In this document: positions 20,252 through 47,490 of the stretch, piece after piece | Numbering within the stretch: the first letter of the stretch is position 1 | Layout: the number at the start of each line of letters is the position of its first letter | Source of the DNA: an uncultured Cryomorphaceae bacterium | GTDB taxonomy: Bacteria > Bacteroidota > Bacteroidia > Flavobacteriales_D > Cryomorphaceae | Length of the DNA: 64,000 bases | Direction of reading: 5' to 3' | Assembly: GCA_942492545.1 (NCBI GenBank) | Contig: CALOFA010000016.1 | Span: 30,935 to 94,934 of the forward strand | The notes under the pieces: model-generated | The model's database searches: none | What the model saw: only the letters and a program-made list of their open reading frames with translations | What the model was told of the DNA's origin: nothing | Translations under genes and position numbers: made by a program

Positions 20252-20333
20252 GCCCGGGTGGCGAAATTGGTAGACGCGCACGCTTGAGGGGCGTGTGAGC
20301 TACGCTCATGCTGGTTCGAGTCCAGTCCGGGCA
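20252..20333 (+). tRNA. tRNA-Leu (anticodon GAG), type II with a long variable arm. No encoded CCA.
   Basis: Folded by hand: acceptor GCCCGGG, anticodon loop TTGAGGG giving GAG, T-loop TTCGAGT, discriminator A. The T-stem/acceptor junction is 1 nt short (CCGGGC where CCCGGGC is expected). Confidence 0.85.
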
Positions 20334-21824: not shown

Positions 21825-22736
21825 ATGGAACACCTCAAAGAATTTTTAGAACACCTCAAAGTCGTATGGTTTGCCAATAGCTACGCTAAAATGATAGTGG
21901 CTGTGGGAATACTCATCCTTACGGTAGTAGTTAATATGTTGTTCGTACGGGTATTCAATCGCTTCATTCGCCGAAGGACGGATGATATGCACAATGATCC
22001 TACTAATTATAAATTCTTGAGGCATGCTATTGTGGCTCTCATCTATGTCGTTGGGGTTAGTGCAGCGATTTACACCATACCGGCTCTTCGAACCTTGGCC
22101 AACTCTCTGCTCGCAGGTGCGGGTATTTTGGCAGTTGCTGTTGGTTTTGCTTCACAACAAGCTTTGAGCAACATGGTTAGTGGTATTTTTATTATCATGT
22201 TTAAGCCTTTTCGGGTGAATGATCGGATCACGATTCAAGGCTCCATCTCGGGAGTGGTTGAGGACATTTCACTTCGGCATGTAGTGATCAGAAATTTTGA
22301 AAACCGACGAGTCATTGTACCCAATTCTATCATAGGCAATGAGATTTTGGTAAATGCCGACTACGAAGATGCGCTGATTTGCAAATGGGTCGATATGGGA
22401 ATCGGTTACGGGGCAGATTACAAATTAGCCAAAAAGATCATCCAAGAGGAAGCGATGAAGCATCCCTTTTTTATCGATAATCGAACTCCCGAAGAAAAGG
22501 CAGAAGGCGTCGATGCCGTTAGGGTGCGCGTGCTGAATTGGGGCGATTTCTCCATAAATATCCGTGCTTGGGTTTGGACAGCCGACAACGGTGCTGCTTT
22601 TCAATTGGGCTGCGACCTATACGAGAGTGTTAAAGAGCGCTTTGATGCTGAAGGTGTGGAGATACCTTATCCATACAGAAATGTGGTGCATTACAATTCA
22701 CCAAATTACGAAGCCCCTATTCCCAAAAAAGACTAA
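21825..22736 (+). CDS. Small-conductance mechanosensitive channel (MscS family).
   Basis: Three N-terminal TM helices then the MscS beta-domain (FKPFRVNDRITIQGSISGVVEDISLRHVVIRNFENRRVIVPNS). Confidence 0.8.
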   Translation: MEHLKEFLEHLKVVWFANSYAKMIVAVGILILTVVVNMLFVRVFNRFIRRRTDDMHNDPTNYKFLRHAIVALIYVVGVSAAIYTIPALRTLANSLLAGAGILAVAVGFASQQALSNMVSGIFIIMFKPFRVNDRITIQGSISGVVEDISLRHVVIRNFENRRVIVPNSIIGNEILVNADYEDALICKWVDMGIGYGADYKLAKKIIQEEAMKHPFFIDNRTPEEKAEGVDAVRVRVLNWGDFSINIRAWVWTADNGAAFQLGCDLYESVKERFDAEGVEIPYPYRNVVHYNSPNYEAPIPKKD

Positions 22737-22745
22737 GTGAAAGCC

Positions 22746-23780
22746 CTAGGTATGCTGAGCGATGTAAAGGTAAAGCGGCATTCCCAAAGTGATATTGAAC
22801 GGGAAAGTAATGGCCAAAGCCATCGGCAGATATAAACTCGGATTGGCCTTTGGCGCAGCTAGTCGCATGGCAGCCGGCACAGCGATGTAGGAAGCACTCG
22901 CCGCTAAAATCGCGAAGAGCAATCTATTCCCAAGGCTTTCGGTAAATGTGCCGCTGATTACGGCTACTGCGCATCCATTGATCACGGGAATCACTATAGC
23001 GAAGATCAGCGCAAACCAACCTTTTTTCATAAAAGACGAAAGCTCCTTGCCGCTGGTTATGCCCATATCGAGTAGAAAAACTGCCAAGAATCCTTTAAAG
23101 ATATCCGTGGTGAAGGGCTTGATTCCTTCGGCTTGGGCGTCACTGGCCAAGTAGCCTATGACGAGGCTACCAATAATGAGCAATACGCTTCCGTTGGTTA
23201 CCGAATGTCTTAATACTTTGCCAAGAGGTGGCTTATTGGTACTGTCTTTATTGAAAAGGCTGATGAGCAATACCCCGATAATGATGGAAGGTGCTTCCAT
23301 CAAAGCCATCACGGCCACCATATGTCCGTCAAATTGGATTTTTTCCAATTCTAAAAAGGAGATGGCAGTAACGAATGTCACTGCACTCACCGATCCATAC
23401 GCTGCGGCAATGGCCCCTGAGTTCCACACATTGAACTTGCGGCGGAGAATGAAATACGCGTAAATCGGTACGACCAAAGCCAAGAGAATTCCAAAAATGA
23501 GGGAGTAGGCTATTTCTGTGTCAAAATCGCTGTGCGAAAGTTCTTGCCCACCTTTGAATCCGATGGAGAGGATGAGGTACATCGAGATAAACTTCGAAGA
23601 GTTGGGAGGTATCGCTAAATCGCTTTTCAACTGAACGGCTATAATCCCCAAGAAGAAGAACAGCAGTGCCGGATTGGTGAGATTGTCGGCTAGTAGATGA
23701 AGGTCCATAACTACTCTGAATTTCTCCGAAGGTATGCTTGGAAGGAATTTATCTGATGGGTTTTGAATTTCAGTTATCAA
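22746..23780 (-). CDS. SbtA-family (DUF897) Na+-dependent bicarbonate-transporter-like permease. The probable start is the internal MDLHLLADNL.
   Basis: C-terminal block AASASYIAVPAAMRLAAPKANPSLYLPMALAITFPFNITLGMPLYLYIAQ aligns with cyanobacterial SbtA (AASSSDISGPPTLRAGIPSANPSAYIG…PLFIGLAQ) as recalled from memory. Overall 10-TM architecture fits. Confidence 0.55.
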   Translation of the reverse strand: MITEIQNPSDKFLPSIPSEKFRVVMDLHLLADNLTNPALLFFFLGIIAVQLKSDLAIPPNSSKFISMYLILSIGFKGGQELSHSDFDTEIAYSLIFGILLALVVPIYAYFILRRKFNVWNSGAIAAAYGSVSAVTFVTAISFLELEKIQFDGHMVAVMALMEAPSIIIGVLLISLFNKDSTNKPPLGKVLRHSVTNGSVLLIIGSLVIGYLASDAQAEGIKPFTTDIFKGFLAVFLLDMGITSGKELSSFMKKGWFALIFAIVIPVINGCAVAVISGTFTESLGNRLLFAILAASASYIAVPAAMRLAAPKANPSLYLPMALAITFPFNITLGMPLYLYIAQHT

Positions 23781-23839
23781 CGACCATTGTTAGAAATTTC
23801 GGTATTCATTCTTATACATGACTCTCTTCACCTTCATAC

Positions 23840-24082
23840 ATGCATATATTTGCTCTCATGTCTGAGAAACCGAATAGAGCGAAGTTTTACATCATTCCCT
23901 GGGCCCTGAGCGCGGCTTTTCTTATCCGAGCTATGATTCTGCGCGATAGCGCTGCCACTTATGCTACGGATGATTTGAGCATTTGGCAATCGCCTTCTTT
24001 TTACTTTGTGCTCTCTTCAGTTGGTTTCATTTTGGGGCTCTATTTTCTTTCGCTGAAAGGCGGAAAGTCAAAATCTGATTAA
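23840..24082 (+). CDS. Small hypothetical membrane protein.
   Basis: 80-aa ORF with two hydrophobic segments; nothing else supports it. Confidence 0.25.
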   Translation: MHIFALMSEKPNRAKFYIIPWALSAAFLIRAMILRDSAATYATDDLSIWQSPSFYFVLSSVGFILGLYFLSLKGGKSKSD

Positions 24083-24112
24083 ACTCTACACCAACCATAT
24101 CAATCGAACTTC

Positions 24113-24277
24113 ATGAGTATTGTAAGAATAATTTTCGCCATCATTTTACCGCCACTCGGAGTATTTCTCACGGTAGGATTGGGTAAGCATTTCTGGATTA
24201 ATGTGCTTTTGACCATTCTGGGCTTTGTGCCGGGTATTGTGCATGCCGTCTGGATTATTGCCAAGAATGACGCATAG
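24113..24277 (+). CDS. Pmp3/YqaE (UPF0057) family small proteolipid, 54 aa.
   Basis: MSIVRIIFAIILPPLGVFLTVGLGKHFWINVLLTILGFVPGIVHAVWIIAKNDA is the family signature. It is below the ORF-track cutoff, and the antisense ORF 24100..24318 is spurious. Confidence 0.6.
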   Translation: MSIVRIIFAIILPPLGVFLTVGLGKHFWINVLLTILGFVPGIVHAVWIIAKNDA

Positions 24278-24315
24278 ATTTCGTTATTGCAGGTCAACTG
24301 CACCATTTCAAATGA

Positions 24316-24419
24316 CAAGCAGGAATATCGGTCTGAGAACCGATAACTTGAAATATCGCCTCTAGAACCGATATTTGGTATTATCGGCTTTAGAGCCGAT
24401 AAATTAGATTATCTGCTGA
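24316..24419. promoter_or_regulatory. Array of four tandem 20-bp palindromic operator-like repeats (TATCGGn-N6-nCCGATA) at exact 28-bp periodicity.
   Basis: Copies at 24316 (tatcggtctgagaaccgata), 24344 (tatcgcctctagaaccgata), 24372 (tatcggctttagagccgata, perfect) and 24400 (tatctgctgagaagccgata, degenerate left arm). The last copy ends 20 nt before the start codon at 24440. Confidence 0.5.
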
Positions 24420-24439
24420 GAAGCCGATATATTCGTGAT

Positions 24440-25039
24440 ATGATTGCAATCATCACCGGAGATATTATAAACTCCACAGAAGACGATTCGACTCAGTGGC
24501 TGTCGCTGCTCAAGCAGGTTTTGAATCGCTACGGCAAAAGCCCCGAGAAATGGGAAATTTTCAGGGGAGATAGTTTTCAATTGGAGGTTGAACCAAAAAA
24601 TGCACTGCACACCGCCTTTCATATCAAGGCATGCCTCAAGCAAACGGGCAGCAGAGATGTAAGAATGGCCATTGGCATTGGCGAGGCTACTCATAAGGCA
24701 GCACGCATTTCAGAATCTAATGGTTCGGCCTATGTGCGCTCAGGCGAAAGCTTTGAGGAATTGAAAAAGCAAACGCTGGCCATTCGAACGGAGAACGAAG
24801 ATATTGACGAAACGATCAATTTGATGTTGCAATTGGCCCTCCTCATTTCGGATAATTGGAGTTCGGCAGTTGCTACGATAATAACCGCATCGATTGAAAA
24901 TCCCGAAAAGTCCCAAAATGAACTGGCTAAGCTTTTGAATAAATCTCAAAGCAGCGTAAGCGAAGCCATGTCGCGTGGAGGATACAGCGAGATGATGAAG
25001 GTGAATCATTACTATTCCAAACGAATCGAAACCTTATGA
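24440..25039 (+). CDS. SatD-like protein: N-terminal region with class-III nucleotidyl-cyclase-like motifs and a putative C-terminal helix-turn-helix.
   Basis: IAIITGDIINST resembles the cyclase metal-binding strand and RMAIGIGEA resembles the cyclase RxGxxxG element. The C-terminal SQNELAKLLNKSQSSVSEAM is HTH-like. Stop/start overlap ATGA with the next gene. Confidence 0.45.
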   Translation: MIAIITGDIINSTEDDSTQWLSLLKQVLNRYGKSPEKWEIFRGDSFQLEVEPKNALHTAFHIKACLKQTGSRDVRMAIGIGEATHKAARISESNGSAYVRSGESFEELKKQTLAIRTENEDIDETINLMLQLALLISDNWSSAVATIITASIENPEKSQNELAKLLNKSQSSVSEAMSRGGYSEMMKVNHYYSKRIETL

Positions 25040-25755
25040 GTCTCCTCTTTATAAAAATGCTGTTGGCCCATGTCTTGGGCGATTTTGTTTTTCAGCCAAG
25101 CGGGTGGGTGGAGCATAAGCTGAAACGGAGGCATAAATCTAAATACCTCTACTTCCATATCCTGATTCACTTGGTTGCGCTGTTGGTTGTATTTCGTCTG
25201 GACTTTGCCTATTGGCCCGTTTTTGTGATCATTCCGATCAGTCACTTCATCATCGATCTGATCAAAATAAATTTGCACAAAAAGGTGAACACGCGTTGGC
25301 TTTTTGTGGTGGATCAGCTTGCGCATATAATGGTCATCTTGGGCTTGGGCCTCTATTATTTTCCCGATTTTTCTATTTCAGCAGAACTCTTTTCCGAGAA
25401 GGATCTATTTCTCGTTTTGTGTCTTCTGATACTCACTTTTGCTGGATCAGTTTTCATACAGGTGCTGATGAGTCGGTGGATCGTTACCGAGGACAAAGAA
25501 AATCAATCGCTACCCGCTGCAGGGAAGTACATCGGCATGCTCGAGCGACTCTTCATCTTTGCTTTCGTGGTATTGAACCAATGGTCAGCCATCGGATTTT
25601 TAATCACCGCAAAATCCGTTTTTCGATTCGGCGACCTTTCTCGGGCCAAGGATCGCAAGCTCACTGAGTACATCCTCATTGGGACGCTGCTCAGTTTTGG
25701 TTTGGCAATTTTGACGGGGCTGCTCTTCAAGTGGTTTTACAAAGCAGCACTTTAA
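25036..25755 (+). CDS. DUF3307 family integral membrane protein.
   Basis: N-terminal AHVLGDFVFQ motif typical of DUF3307. Six hydrophobic segments. Translationally coupled to the SatD-like gene. Confidence 0.55.
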   Translation: MSLLFIKMLLAHVLGDFVFQPSGWVEHKLKRRHKSKYLYFHILIHLVALLVVFRLDFAYWPVFVIIPISHFIIDLIKINLHKKVNTRWLFVVDQLAHIMVILGLGLYYFPDFSISAELFSEKDLFLVLCLLILTFAGSVFIQVLMSRWIVTEDKENQSLPAAGKYIGMLERLFIFAFVVLNQWSAIGFLITAKSVFRFGDLSRAKDRKLTEYILIGTLLSFGLAILTGLLFKWFYKAAL

Positions 25756-45008: not shown

Positions 45009-47490
45009 ATTTATCACGGTAGGTTTTGCCATCTTTTTCCAGGTTTATCACATACATTCCCTGTGTTAGATTTAATCTTATCAGTTGATTGTTTAGTACA
45101 CCTTCCAATACCCTTCTGCCGTTGAGGTCGGCAACATAATAGGACGAACCTAATGGGGCCTTTGAAATATTAATATATTCTTGTGCAGGATTTGGGTAAA
45201 GCCCTGTAGTAGTTACTTCTTCGGGTTTGTTTGCTGAAAGTACGTCTCCTGTCAAATCATCAATGTCTGCCGAGAATATCGAGACACCATAGGTTGCTGC
45301 GATCAGTCTGTTCGTTTCCGTTTGAATTTCAAGATCGGTTACTACTACGTATGGGAAATTGCCCCCTGCTCTATACCAGTTAAACCCGTTATCTATAGTC
45401 ATATAAACCCCGTTATCTGAAGCTATAAACCAAGTTGTTTCGTCGTAGATTTCTATATGGTTTATGGGCATTTCTTCCAGATTTCCCGATACGGGAATCC
45501 AGTTTTGACCGTAATCTGAACTCAAATAGAGGTGTGGGGTTTCATCATTATCTCGATATCCCGAAACGGATATCAGAACTTCGGATTCCTGGAAAGGTGA
45601 GGCTTTTACATCCGTCACGTAAAAGCCCGGTAGTCCATCGGAGATGTCGTTCCAACTGTCACCTCCGTTTTGGGTTACCCATGCCTTACCGTCGGAAGTT
45701 CCCGCATAAATTACATCACCATTCACCTCCGATTGCCAAATCGTACTCACATTCCTTCTGTCAAAGAACTCCTCACTCTCATCTACCAGCACAGGCGAAA
45801 TTGGTTCCCAAATGCCGAATGGTGATCCTTCCATCTTATAAACTCGCTCGCGAGCCATATACAGCGTTGTATTTTCTTCGTGATCCATTCGAATAGGTGC
45901 ATCCCAGTTCACTCTTTCATTAAATGGATATCCATCGATCAGAGGTATCAGATCGCCAAATTCAGAATCAAAGCAGTAGAAGAGCCCATTCTGAACCGTC
46001 ATGTATGTCAAGTTTCCAAAAATTGGATCGATAATGGGCTGAAATCCATCACCCCCGAAAAACCTCAACCAATCGTCGGTTGGCTCTTCTCCAATGCTTA
46101 TCGATGTTCCGTTGTCCTGCGCACCACCGTATATCAGAGAAATGTCATGCGGACTCGTTGCGATTCGGTAAAACTGCGTATTGGGAATATTATCGACGTC
46201 TTGCCAAGTTTCGGCTCCGTCTGAAGTTCGATAAAGCCCTCCATCCGTGGCTAGGAGGACGTCATCAGGACCTATGTAAACCATGTCGTGTTTGTCGGCA
46301 TGAACGATATATTCAAACCATGGCGGAGCACTCATCACCCAATTATTACCACTATTGTTGGTAGAGTATAGATCGACTCCCAGTAGACTTATTTGATTTT
46401 GATTTGTTGGATTGACTCCAATCTTCCCGAAGTACCAACCAAATCCACCCAAAGCGTTTGCAGGAATGTCGAAAGTTGGGATTGTTTCAAAGTTCCCCCC
46501 GGCATTTTGACTCTTGTATATTCCTTCTAGCTGGTAAGTAGGATTTACATAAACAGCAAAGAGCACGCTTGGATCACCCTCCCATAAGTGCAGCCCTATT
46601 CTGCTCATCGGGCCTTCGGGTAGGCCGTTACTTAGTTCCTCCCATGATTCACCTCCATCGGTCGTTTTAAAAATTTTGGCATCGTCACCTTCGGCAATGC
46701 TTTCGAGGTTGGTGCGAATTCGGTTCCACCCTGCAGCGTAAAGTACGTTAGGATCTTCAGGATTCATCACCAAATCAATTACTCCTGCCGACTCGCTCAC
46801 AAAGAGTACTTGTCCCCAAGTATCGCCACCATCATCACTCCTGTACAATCCTCTATCGGGCCCTTCTTGGAAAGGATTTCCCATTGTAGCAACAAAAATT
46901 TGGTCGGAGTTATCCGGATTTACAATGATCTTAGAAATGATTCTGCTTTCTTCAAGACCAATATTTTGCCATGAATCTCCCCCGTCAGTGCTGCGATAAA
47001 GGCCATTACCTATGTAAACCTGCCCGCTAATGTTTGGGTCACCTGTGCCCAGGTAAATGGTTTCGGGATTGTTTGGGTCATAGGCAATATGCCCAACGGG
47101 CAAATGTGTGAGACTTTCAGTAATGGCTTCCCAAATCTGACCATCGTCTTCCGTGCGGTAGGCCCCGCCCCCCGCAGTTCCTATAATCCAGGTGCTTGGG
47201 TCATTCGGATGAACTGCGATGGTGTTGATTCTTCCTCCAATATTAAATGGCCCTTCTTGAAGCCACTCTGTATCAATCGTTTTGGATCTGTTTAAACCAA
47301 ATTTTTTTCGAGCTCTTTCAACACTTTTCAGCAATACTTTGTGATCTACTATGCTATCGGGAAAGGACCGCTGAAAATAGAAGTGCTCGTATGGTGCGTA
47401 CTTTTCATCCAACTTATTTGACTGTTCTTCGCAAGCCAAGAATACCAGCGGAAAGAGAAAAGCAATAAAACCTTTTTTCATATTCTCCAA
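44989..47490 (-). CDS. BNR/Asp-box (sortilin/VPS10-like, xyloglucanase-like) repeat protein with T9SS type-A CTD.
   Basis: Multiple SxDxGxTW-like repeats (e.g. STDGGDSWQ, SDDGGDTWG). C-terminus YPNPAQEYINI…MYVINLEKDG. Confidence 0.6.
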   Translation of the reverse strand: MENMKKGFIAFLFPLVFLACEEQSNKLDEKYAPYEHFYFQRSFPDSIVDHKVLLKSVERARKKFGLNRSKTIDTEWLQEGPFNIGGRINTIAVHPNDPSTWIIGTAGGGAYRTEDDGQIWEAITESLTHLPVGHIAYDPNNPETIYLGTGDPNISGQVYIGNGLYRSTDGGDSWQNIGLEESRIISKIIVNPDNSDQIFVATMGNPFQEGPDRGLYRSDDGGDTWGQVLFVSESAGVIDLVMNPEDPNVLYAAGWNRIRTNLESIAEGDDAKIFKTTDGGESWEELSNGLPEGPMSRIGLHLWEGDPSVLFAVYVNPTYQLEGIYKSQNAGGNFETIPTFDIPANALGGFGWYFGKIGVNPTNQNQISLLGVDLYSTNNSGNNWVMSAPPWFEYIVHADKHDMVYIGPDDVLLATDGGLYRTSDGAETWQDVDNIPNTQFYRIATSPHDISLIYGGAQDNGTSISIGEEPTDDWLRFFGGDGFQPIIDPIFGNLTYMTVQNGLFYCFDSEFGDLIPLIDGYPFNERVNWDAPIRMDHEENTTLYMARERVYKMEGSPFGIWEPISPVLVDESEEFFDRRNVSTIWQSEVNGDVIYAGTSDGKAWVTQNGGDSWNDISDGLPGFYVTDVKASPFQESEVLISVSGYRDNDETPHLYLSSDYGQNWIPVSGNLEEMPINHIEIYDETTWFIASDNGVYMTIDNGFNWYRAGGNFPYVVVTDLEIQTETNRLIAATYGVSIFSADIDDLTGDVLSANKPEEVTTTGLYPNPAQEYINISKAPLGSSYYVADLNGRRVLEGVLNNQLIRLNLTQGMYVINLEKDGKTYRDKFMVSDF

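Follow-up and report, generated by a model that had tools for sequence, protein, structure and literature searches.

What binds the four evenly spaced palindromes that precede satD in a 64,000-nucleotide stretch of DNA from an uncultured Cryomorphaceae bacterium (contig CALOFA010000016.1; the whole stretch is termed the window), and what is controlled through them? The palindromes, each 20 bp long and of the form TATCGG-N8-CCGATA, recur at exact 28-bp steps in the interval from the Pmp3 gene to the open reading frame (ORF) starting at 24440, which encodes a SatD-family protein and is followed by a gene for a DUF3307 membrane protein. In all likelihood they are 28-bp-phased operators of SatD itself, through which the self-contained satD-DUF3307 operon would be cooperatively autorepressed, probably in a nucleotide-modulated manner. 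From the comparison of related loci, the identity of the operators, their predicted binder, the 28-bp architecture and the two-gene unit are well supported. The logic, an autorepressor acting at phased operators, is familiar, and it would be carried out here by an unusual protein, a cyclase fold joined to a helix-turn-helix (HTH), from a very widespread family. The array and the gene of its putative regulator are arranged as follows, in window coordinates.

24326-24345, no strand assigned: putative operator O1, TATCGGTCTGAGAACCGATA; 7/10 symmetric pairs; predicted position -114 to -95.
24354-24373, no strand assigned: putative operator O2, TATCGCCTCTAGAACCGATA; 8/10 symmetric pairs; predicted position -86 to -67; 28 bp after O1.
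24382-24401, no strand assigned: putative operator O3, TATCGGCTTTAGAGCCGATA; 9/10 symmetric pairs; predicted position -58 to -39; 28 bp after O2.
24410-24429, no strand assigned: putative operator O4, TATCTGCTGAGAAGCCGATA; 7/10 symmetric pairs; predicted position -30 to -11; overlaps the predicted -7 box by 2 nt.
24440-25039, forward strand: satD, 199 amino acids (aa), with a palm/cyclase-like domain predicted at residues ~1-117 and a helical DNA-binding domain predicted at ~120-199.
24941-24976, forward strand: predicted recognition helix KSQSSVSEAMSR of SatD, residues 168-179, in which S172 varies together with half-site position 5 and E175 with position 4.

The initial annotation of this DNA had recognized four palindromes at a 28-bp register, and this is confirmed, but each had been given a coordinate lower than its true one by 10 nt. 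Between the end of the array at 24429 and the satD ATG at 24440 there are 10 nt, where the annotation gave 20, and the third copy, described as a perfect palindrome, pairs at nine of ten positions. O3 is nevertheless the best copy, with 8-bp arms plus one inner pair, and its sequence is identical in three relatives (L001-L003). Tandem Repeats Finder reports the segment 24322-24433 with a period of 28, 4.0 copies and a score of 87. TATC-N12-GATA occurs five times in the window, four of these within the array, compared with a mean of 0.8 in shuffled sequence.

Related loci were collected in two sets, 80 Bacteroidota loci of 50-91% identity from a scan of one genome per species and 70 non-redundant loci found when metagenomes were scanned with a subfamily further removed in sequence (alignment A4). 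Altogether, 151 non-redundant related loci carry between two and five palindromes ahead of satD, usually three; among 81 loci of the 50-91% identity range nearly all have three, sometimes four or five, immediately 5' of the gene. A strict palindrome scan yielded 8.7 matches per kb in the 220 nt upstream of satD and 0.19 per kb elsewhere, and a looser family motif matched 200 times in 20.7 kb of upstream sequence compared with 23 isolated matches in 465 kb elsewhere. Thus, the array motif is not a genome-wide repeat, one of the outcomes that the initial annotation had named as damaging to its proposal; another, absence of the motif upstream of orthologous cassettes, is likewise contradicted by its presence there.

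Successive palindromes are separated by exactly 28 bp in 64 of 83 cases in the first set, the remainder being mostly 56 or 84 bp, and in 62 of 76 cases in the second. Across 224 pairs of adjacent units the arms are 91% identical, while the spacers agree at 51% of positions compared with 45% in random pairs. Constant spacer length combined with drifting spacer sequence argues for selection on phase rather than recent duplication. Units do duplicate, since a few arrays hold identical palindromic units, and copy number varies from two to five, as would be expected if the array were a functionless tandem duplication of an operator-plus-spacer unit that has persisted by chance. This explanation is exceedingly improbable: only 0.4% of the adjacent units are identical, spacer similarity is near random, and arrays of three or more copies with the exact 28-bp spacing persist over phylum-level distances, into the Gammaproteobacteria. 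The proposal in the initial annotation that a fixed phase points to higher-order binding gains indirect support, as length is conserved while sequence is not and the same phase recurs on a gammaproteobacterial plasmid.

Which protein reads the palindromes is indicated by the half-sites themselves, which change together with the predicted recognition helix of the SatD protein encoded beside them. The classes observed are listed with the half-site first.

TATCGG with helix KSQSS[IV]SEAL
TATCTG with helix KSQ[SG]NISE
TATCGT with helix KSQS[TV]ISE
TATATGC with helix KKQSNIST
TATTAC with helix STQSNISK
TATTGA[CT] with helix KTQSTIS[IA]

In the first set, every one of the 50 loci with serine or threonine at residue 172 has G at half-site position 5, and 19 of the 24 with N172 have T there; E175 accompanies C at position 4 in 68/68 loci and residues other than glutamate accompany A or T in 9/9. 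These associations were reached by 0 of 2000 permutations. The combination of N172 with T5 appears in at least six separate clusters defined from residues 1-140 only, including switches within Flagellimonas/Allomuricauda. Further pairs are found in the second set (QNSVSKRY with TATCACC, QNAISNRL with TATCACG and QNSVSGRW with TATCGTT), in which QSSVSE is once more coupled to TATCGG. Because the half-site switches with the recognition helix, and does so in at least six separate clusters, the palindromes are almost certainly binding sites of SatD, the cassette's own regulator; comparison of the loci thus shows the predicted HTH of SatD to be what recognises the TATCGG half-site. The earlier suggestion that SatD is a plausible autoregulator of these sites is therefore backed both by co-occurrence at ~150 loci and by helix/half-site co-variation.

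Two loci (L135 and L145) differ in that, ~170 nt upstream of satD, TATCGG and TATAGG (CCTATA) arms are found in single palindromes and the arrays are interrupted between unit pairs. With such mixed arms, position 4 may be read less strictly, or two specificities may be present together.

The symmetry of the palindromes is of a protein type. The palindromes keep their sequence at the six outer positions and have an A/T-rich, non-complementary centre, and mismatches between arms show no wobble bias (G:T 64, A:C 88, other 227); conserved arms without such a bias argue for protein-type and not RNA-type symmetry. This bears on the idea that the repeats act as RNA or single strands, forming hairpins for the end or stability of the Pmp3 transcript, a structured leader or elements resembling repetitive extragenic palindromes, with SatD uninvolved. 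The array does follow the Pmp3 stop codon, and its region, treated as RNA, folds strongly (-43 kcal/mol, z -5.4), but this energy is a trivial consequence of the sites being palindromes. We consider an RNA role highly improbable, given that the arm sequence is conserved beyond what pairing needs, that the half-site tracks HTH residues, and that the array is always found with satD although the gene upstream of it differs at almost every locus. In addition, the predicted transcription start lies downstream of the array, an Rfam scan of 24200-24500 gave no match at E ≤ 1 and a terminator scan of the array region detected no T-tract terminator.

The assignment of ORF 24440 to the SatD family, a check proposed in the initial annotation, is confirmed by Pfam (PF16264; 39 bits compared with a gathering cutoff of 29; residues 2-177 on model positions 2-192 of 211), and the SatD motifs quoted there are present in the translation. 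Public names of close relatives in the Cryomorphaceae (Flavobacteriales) likewise read 'SatD family protein'. An AlphaFold2 model built with 25 homologues is confident, with a predicted local distance difference test value (pLDDT) of 93, and places helices at residues 142-153, 159-165 and 170-179. The Pfam models HTH_24, HTH_3 and HTH_37 match residues 143-180, below cutoff (17 bits compared with 21.9). The model matches the following folds, with the value for each.

GTP cyclohydrolase III, 11.4
Adenylyl cyclase Rv1264, 11.3
GGDEF protein DgcB, 11.1
Minimal CRISPR polymerase (mCpol), 9.3

Cas10 palm domains are also among the fold matches. The modelled domain has the beta-alpha-alpha-beta-beta-alpha-beta order of the palm fold, with aspartates on beta-1 and in the beta-2/beta-3 loop: D8 ends strand 1 and G43-D44 lie in the turn between strands 2 and 3. 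By this topology D8 and D44 would correspond to the metal-ion positions of cyclase/palm enzymes. The only invariant residues among homologues of 23-37% identity are D8, S12, G43-D44 and R75, and the palm domain that keeps them most likely binds, and possibly converts, a nucleotide, thereby setting the tightness or cooperativity of the hold on DNA. The modelled cyclase-fold domain with an intact metal site, together with an operator-specific HTH, suggests a nucleotide-controlled repressor. The cyclase-like core noted in the initial annotation thus holds at the level of the fold, but not at the level of sequence: neither Guanylate_cyc (PF00211) nor GGDEF matched SatD at E ≤ 1 in Pfam or NCBIfam, NCBIfam returned no match at all, and the hairpin reads RGDSF and not the GG[D/E]EF signature. 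A profile search with SatD against PDB sequences returned only designed helical-repeat proteins, which we regard as spurious.

The second gene of the pair is as follows.

25036-25755, forward strand: DUF3307 membrane protein, 239 aa, with ~7 hydrophobic segments, beginning in a 4-nt overlap with the end of satD.

The ATGA overlap (25036-25039) and the HxxxDFxxQ motif described in the initial annotation are both present, and the proposed DUF3307 assignment passes its Pfam cutoff (PF11750; 102 bits compared with 23; residues 4-125). Hydropathy gives about seven hydrophobic segments, and not clearly the six transmembrane spans that had been proposed. An NCBIfam search with the protein returned noise only. 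A DUF3307 gene lies directly 3' of satD on the same strand in 80/80 loci of the first set, with a 4-nt overlap in 60 and an overlap of either 4 or 7 nt in 73/80. When flanking ORFs of 164 loci were clustered, SatD was recovered in 161, DUF3307 in 154 and anything else in 9 at most. Comparison of the loci thus shows array, predicted regulator gene and DUF3307 gene to be one self-contained cassette, travelling together.

Residues 126-239 of DUF3307 have no Pfam model and contain the longest invariant runs of the protein (25-sequence alignment A2). Within them, residues 158-225 (SLxxAGKYIGxLERLFxFxF...AKSVFRFGDLSxAKDRKLTEY) are almost invariant among 25 homologues of 53-84% identity, and here the AlphaFold2 pLDDT is only ~50. 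This stretch could form a conserved domain that has so far escaped recognition, or a surface for interaction.

Two candidate promoter elements lie around O4.

24404-24407, forward strand: -33-like element TTAG in the O3-O4 spacer, one mismatch to the Bacteroidetes TTTG; a putative assignment.
24428-24435, forward strand: candidate -7 box TATATTCG, which departs from TAnnTTTG at one position and is separated from the ATG by 4 nt.

The comparative evidence for this arrangement is contained in the repeat unit, whose consensus over 72 loci is aTTATCGGCTtTAaAGCCGATAT.TTTG. At the -33 offset the penultimate spacer reads TTTG in 43/72 loci and TTG in 53/72, and the final TA of the last palindrome together with its spacer forms TAnnTTTG in the consensus; the last operator would consequently occupy the -33/-7 spacer and overlap the -7 box, the same placement as O4. 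Among loci of the second set, 27 have their last palindrome ending 8 nt ahead of the ATG; those inspected read GATATTTG followed by 4 nt and the ATG, a +1 geometry which matches that of the window. In flavobacteria the TAnnTTTG box spans -12 to -5 (PMC9723704). Taking TATATTCG at 24428-24435 as this box puts +1 at A24440 of the ATG, and the satD mRNA is therefore predicted to be leaderless, a class that makes up only about 5.5% of mRNAs in Flavobacterium psychrophilum (PMC9723704). A sigma-70 scan of this region of the window was uninformative, the model being ill-suited to a Bacteroidetes promoter. A Vibrio plasmid cassette provides a parallel in another promoter type, in which, by our own reading, the last operator occupies a 17-bp sigma-70 spacer. 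That the 28-bp period might be no more than a product of Bacteroidetes -33/-7 geometry was considered and discarded, since the phase is kept in the distal copies and in this gammaproteobacterial plasmid.

An operator within the core-promoter spacer argues for repression. Three of the four sites nevertheless lie upstream of -35, and the -33 and -7 elements of the window are both imperfect, as they are at activator-dependent promoters. SatD could on this basis be mainly an activator or a two-state switch, the upstream operators recruiting or remodelling RNA polymerase (MerR-type, or class I/II) in positive feedback. Activation appears improbable, as the last operator occupies the -33/-7 spacer and overlaps the -7 box in the 72-locus consensus, and the spacer in the Vibrio plasmid is of the normal 17-bp length and not the overlong MerR type. 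Genetic results from Streptococcus pyogenes also suit a repressor better. There, satD is accessory, being found in 71% of genomes, yet in transposon sequencing (Tn-seq) it alone among accessory genes scores as essential in each of the three strains examined, an observation for which the authors offer no explanation (PMC11323703). Repression of a harmful partner by SatD would account for it, if only indirectly.

Combined, these observations suggest a scheme for autorepression by SatD. Each palindrome would be bound by a symmetric SatD dimer, and contacts between neighbouring dimers would fix the 28-bp phase; 28 bp corresponds to 2.67 helical turns, such that three sites, 84 bp, make 8 turns. 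The occupied array would span -114 to -11 of a sigma-A promoter and, because O4 sits in the -33/-7 spacer, RNA polymerase would be excluded. The leaderless bicistronic satD-DUF3307 mRNA would in this way be kept low by negative autoregulation, while the palm/cyclase-like domain and its nucleotide would set the strength or cooperativity of DNA binding by SatD. Once SatD lets go of the DNA, the polytopic membrane protein DUF3307, the output of the cassette, would be expressed. Within this scheme it is repression, dimer-dimer cooperativity, the leaderless start and nucleotide control by the palm domain that we infer.

Several points weigh against the scheme. All of its support is comparative or predicted, and occupancy upstream of -35 could also activate transcription. 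The HTH models of Pfam stay under their cutoffs in SatD, and for the putative nucleotide ligand or activity the sequence searches gave neither a cyclase nor a GGDEF match. The permutation test ignores phylogeny and the independence of the helix switches rests on simple clustering by the unweighted pair group method with arithmetic mean (UPGMA); moreover, L020 and L037 pair N172 with G5, and L098 pairs QNSVSGRW with TATCGGG. Finally, both promoter elements of the window are off consensus (TTAG and TATATTCG), and alternative -7-like boxes follow O2 and O3.

The cassette is widely distributed. A SatD profile retrieved 2188 clusters at 50% identity (E ≤ 1e-3), and the satD-DUF3307 cassette is present at no fewer than 587 places in the collection of one genome per bacterial or archaeal species. 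Plasmids were searched by tblastn and SatD-like/DUF3307 pairs of 25-29% identity were found on four, from three phyla or classes. A Vibrio lentus plasmid, with a homologue of 28% identity, carries three TTAGCC-N6-GGCTAA palindromes at spacings of 28 and 28 bp, and a Segatella plasmid carries two AATCAA-N10-TTGATT palindromes 28 bp apart. On pEC34A (L081; NC_019077.1, 1792-3481), a mobilizable 3.77-kb plasmid of the ColE1 type that occurs in E. coli and Klebsiella and carries Rop and MobA, a SatD-like protein of 226 aa and a DUF3307 protein of 332 aa are the only cargo apart from one small hypothetical ORF, and two AACC-N5/6-GGTT palindromes lie upstream, about 28.5 bp apart; this cassette was not found in RefSeq complete E. 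coli genomes. A fourth pair (L083), on a Sphingomonas insulae plasmid (1-5564), is flanked by ImmA/IrrE-HTH and TIR genes to one side and by genes for a Pycsar effector and cyclase to the other, a defence-island-like setting unlike that of the chromosomal Bacteroidota loci. An extra small ORF precedes this pair, overlapping its start, and no palindrome array is evident upstream of it. A tblastn search of 50,697 phage records with both proteins gave no match.

Regularly phased repeats and pairs residing on plasmids, one of them as the only cargo, would also suit a role in replication or partition of a mobile element, as iterons or as a centromere-like site, or else recognition by a different, global regulator. 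Such proposals are highly improbable. The context in the window is chromosomal and housekeeping, neither Rep nor ParA is among the gene families conserved beside the cassette in the 164 clustered loci, and pEC34A has its own ColE1-type Rop/Mob backbone. The motif is concentrated at satD, with four of the five TATC-N12-GATA matches of the window in the array and flanking matches sparse and isolated, and the co-variation implicates SatD itself. The iteron-like character proposed initially is thus a formal resemblance only, as the units are palindromic and not the directional, directly repeated asymmetric sites of true iterons.

Is the cassette, beyond the proposed autorepression by SatD, a signalling module? 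Pfam detects 163 families among the 150 immediate neighbours, mostly housekeeping ones (e.g. FTHFS, SBF, MscL and RmuC). A defence-model search of 150 flanking proteins gave scattered matches only, the clearest a single type I restriction enzyme, and a search of both proteins against PADLOC-DB 2.0 gave only a chance-level CARF match (E 0.015). With neither a third conserved gene nor enrichment in defence islands, a defence function is made less probable for the chromosomal Bacteroidota form. The cyclase-like 'signalling module' of the initial annotation can be kept as a hypothesis. In its boldest version, which we consider unlikely, SatD would be a catalytically active minimal palm nucleotidyltransferase or cyclase joined to an HTH, whose substrate or product governs the assembly of a 28-bp-phased protein filament on DNA, and this filament would silence DUF3307, a conditionally harmful membrane effector. 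If true, the pair would represent a novel type of module, self-contained and serving nucleotide signalling or addiction, with a logic like that of mCpol-plus-membrane-effector or toxin-antitoxin systems built from unrelated parts, and rapid, repeated re-coding of HTH and operator would insulate co-resident cassettes from one another.

Parts of the autorepression scheme have precedents. The repressor NrdR acts at palindromic boxes, at least two in number, which have a fixed centre-to-centre distance and overlap the promoter, and its oligomeric state probably sets binding. SatD is predicted to share the joining of a nucleotide-binding domain to a DNA-binding module and the fixed-distance boxes over a promoter, but the domains differ, an ATP-cone and zinc ribbon in NrdR compared with a palm/cyclase fold and HTH in SatD. 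NrdR boxes are ~31-32 bp apart, an integral number of turns, whereas SatD has three or four boxes at 28 bp, or 2.67 turns; and NrdR regulates ribonucleotide reductase genes, whereas SatD would regulate only itself and DUF3307. Ss-LrpB of Sulfolobus and lambda CI at OR1-OR3 are autoregulators which bind three phased palindromes overlapping a promoter as cooperative dimers. They have in common with SatD the regularly spaced palindromes in the regulator's own control region, but have Lrp/AsnC and lambda repressor folds and spacings of ~31 bp and 23-24 bp, respectively, and neither contains a cyclase-like domain or is tied to a single membrane-protein partner.

From class III cyclases, GGDEF proteins and mCpol, SatD differs in having no Guanylate_cyc or GGDEF sequence match, its hairpin reading RGDSF, and the fusion of its palm domain to an operator-specific HTH is its distinctive feature. 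SatD and DUF3307 have neither a PADLOC match beyond chance level nor a defence-island context in the window. A class III adenylyl-cyclase-like ATP-binding domain is found in a transcriptional regulator of Pseudomonas aeruginosa (PDB 6yii), which is a far larger multidomain protein of 473 residues and is not known to have a phased operator array or a DUF3307 partner. Type II toxin-antitoxin systems share with the cassette two coupled genes, autoregulated (here by inference), variable neighbourhoods and a presence on plasmids, and the regulator gene scores as essential though accessory in S. pyogenes. DUF3307, however, is a highly conserved 239-aa polytopic membrane protein and not a small soluble toxin, the SatD regulator carries an enzyme-like domain, and in Bacteroidota the cassette is widely kept, with housekeeping genes around it.

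The literature searched contained no paper tying SatD or DUF3307 to a function or mechanism. For these widespread families, autorepression by SatD would be a first testable regulatory model, with a defined operator, a fixed 28-bp architecture shared by Bacteroidota and a Vibrio plasmid, and a predicted promoter and leaderless start, and it offers an account of the essentiality scores of the accessory satD in S. pyogenes. The co-variation further amounts to a natural recognition code, in which residue 172 would read position 5 and residue 175 position 4, and from which specificity-swap mutants can be predicted.

The neighbours of the cassette in the window include MscS, an SbtA-type transporter, Pmp3 (Pfam PF01679), an acid phosphatase and PAS proteins. 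The upstream genes at 21825-24277 are all of a small-solute or membrane-stress kind, comprising an MscS-type channel, an SbtA-type Na+/bicarbonate transporter, a hydrophobic ORF of 80 aa and Pmp3; elsewhere, 3 of the 150 sampled neighbours match MscL, and 7 loci share a cluster whose example sequence appears MscL-like. These membrane-stress neighbours may be a coincidence or may hint at a role in membrane stress. Two other features of the window are unrelated to the array: a tRNA gene at 20252-20333 (Rfam RF00005, 39 bits), and a 24-bp tandem repeat of 2.2 copies (TAAACCCCGTTATCTAAAGTCATA) at 45381-45431.

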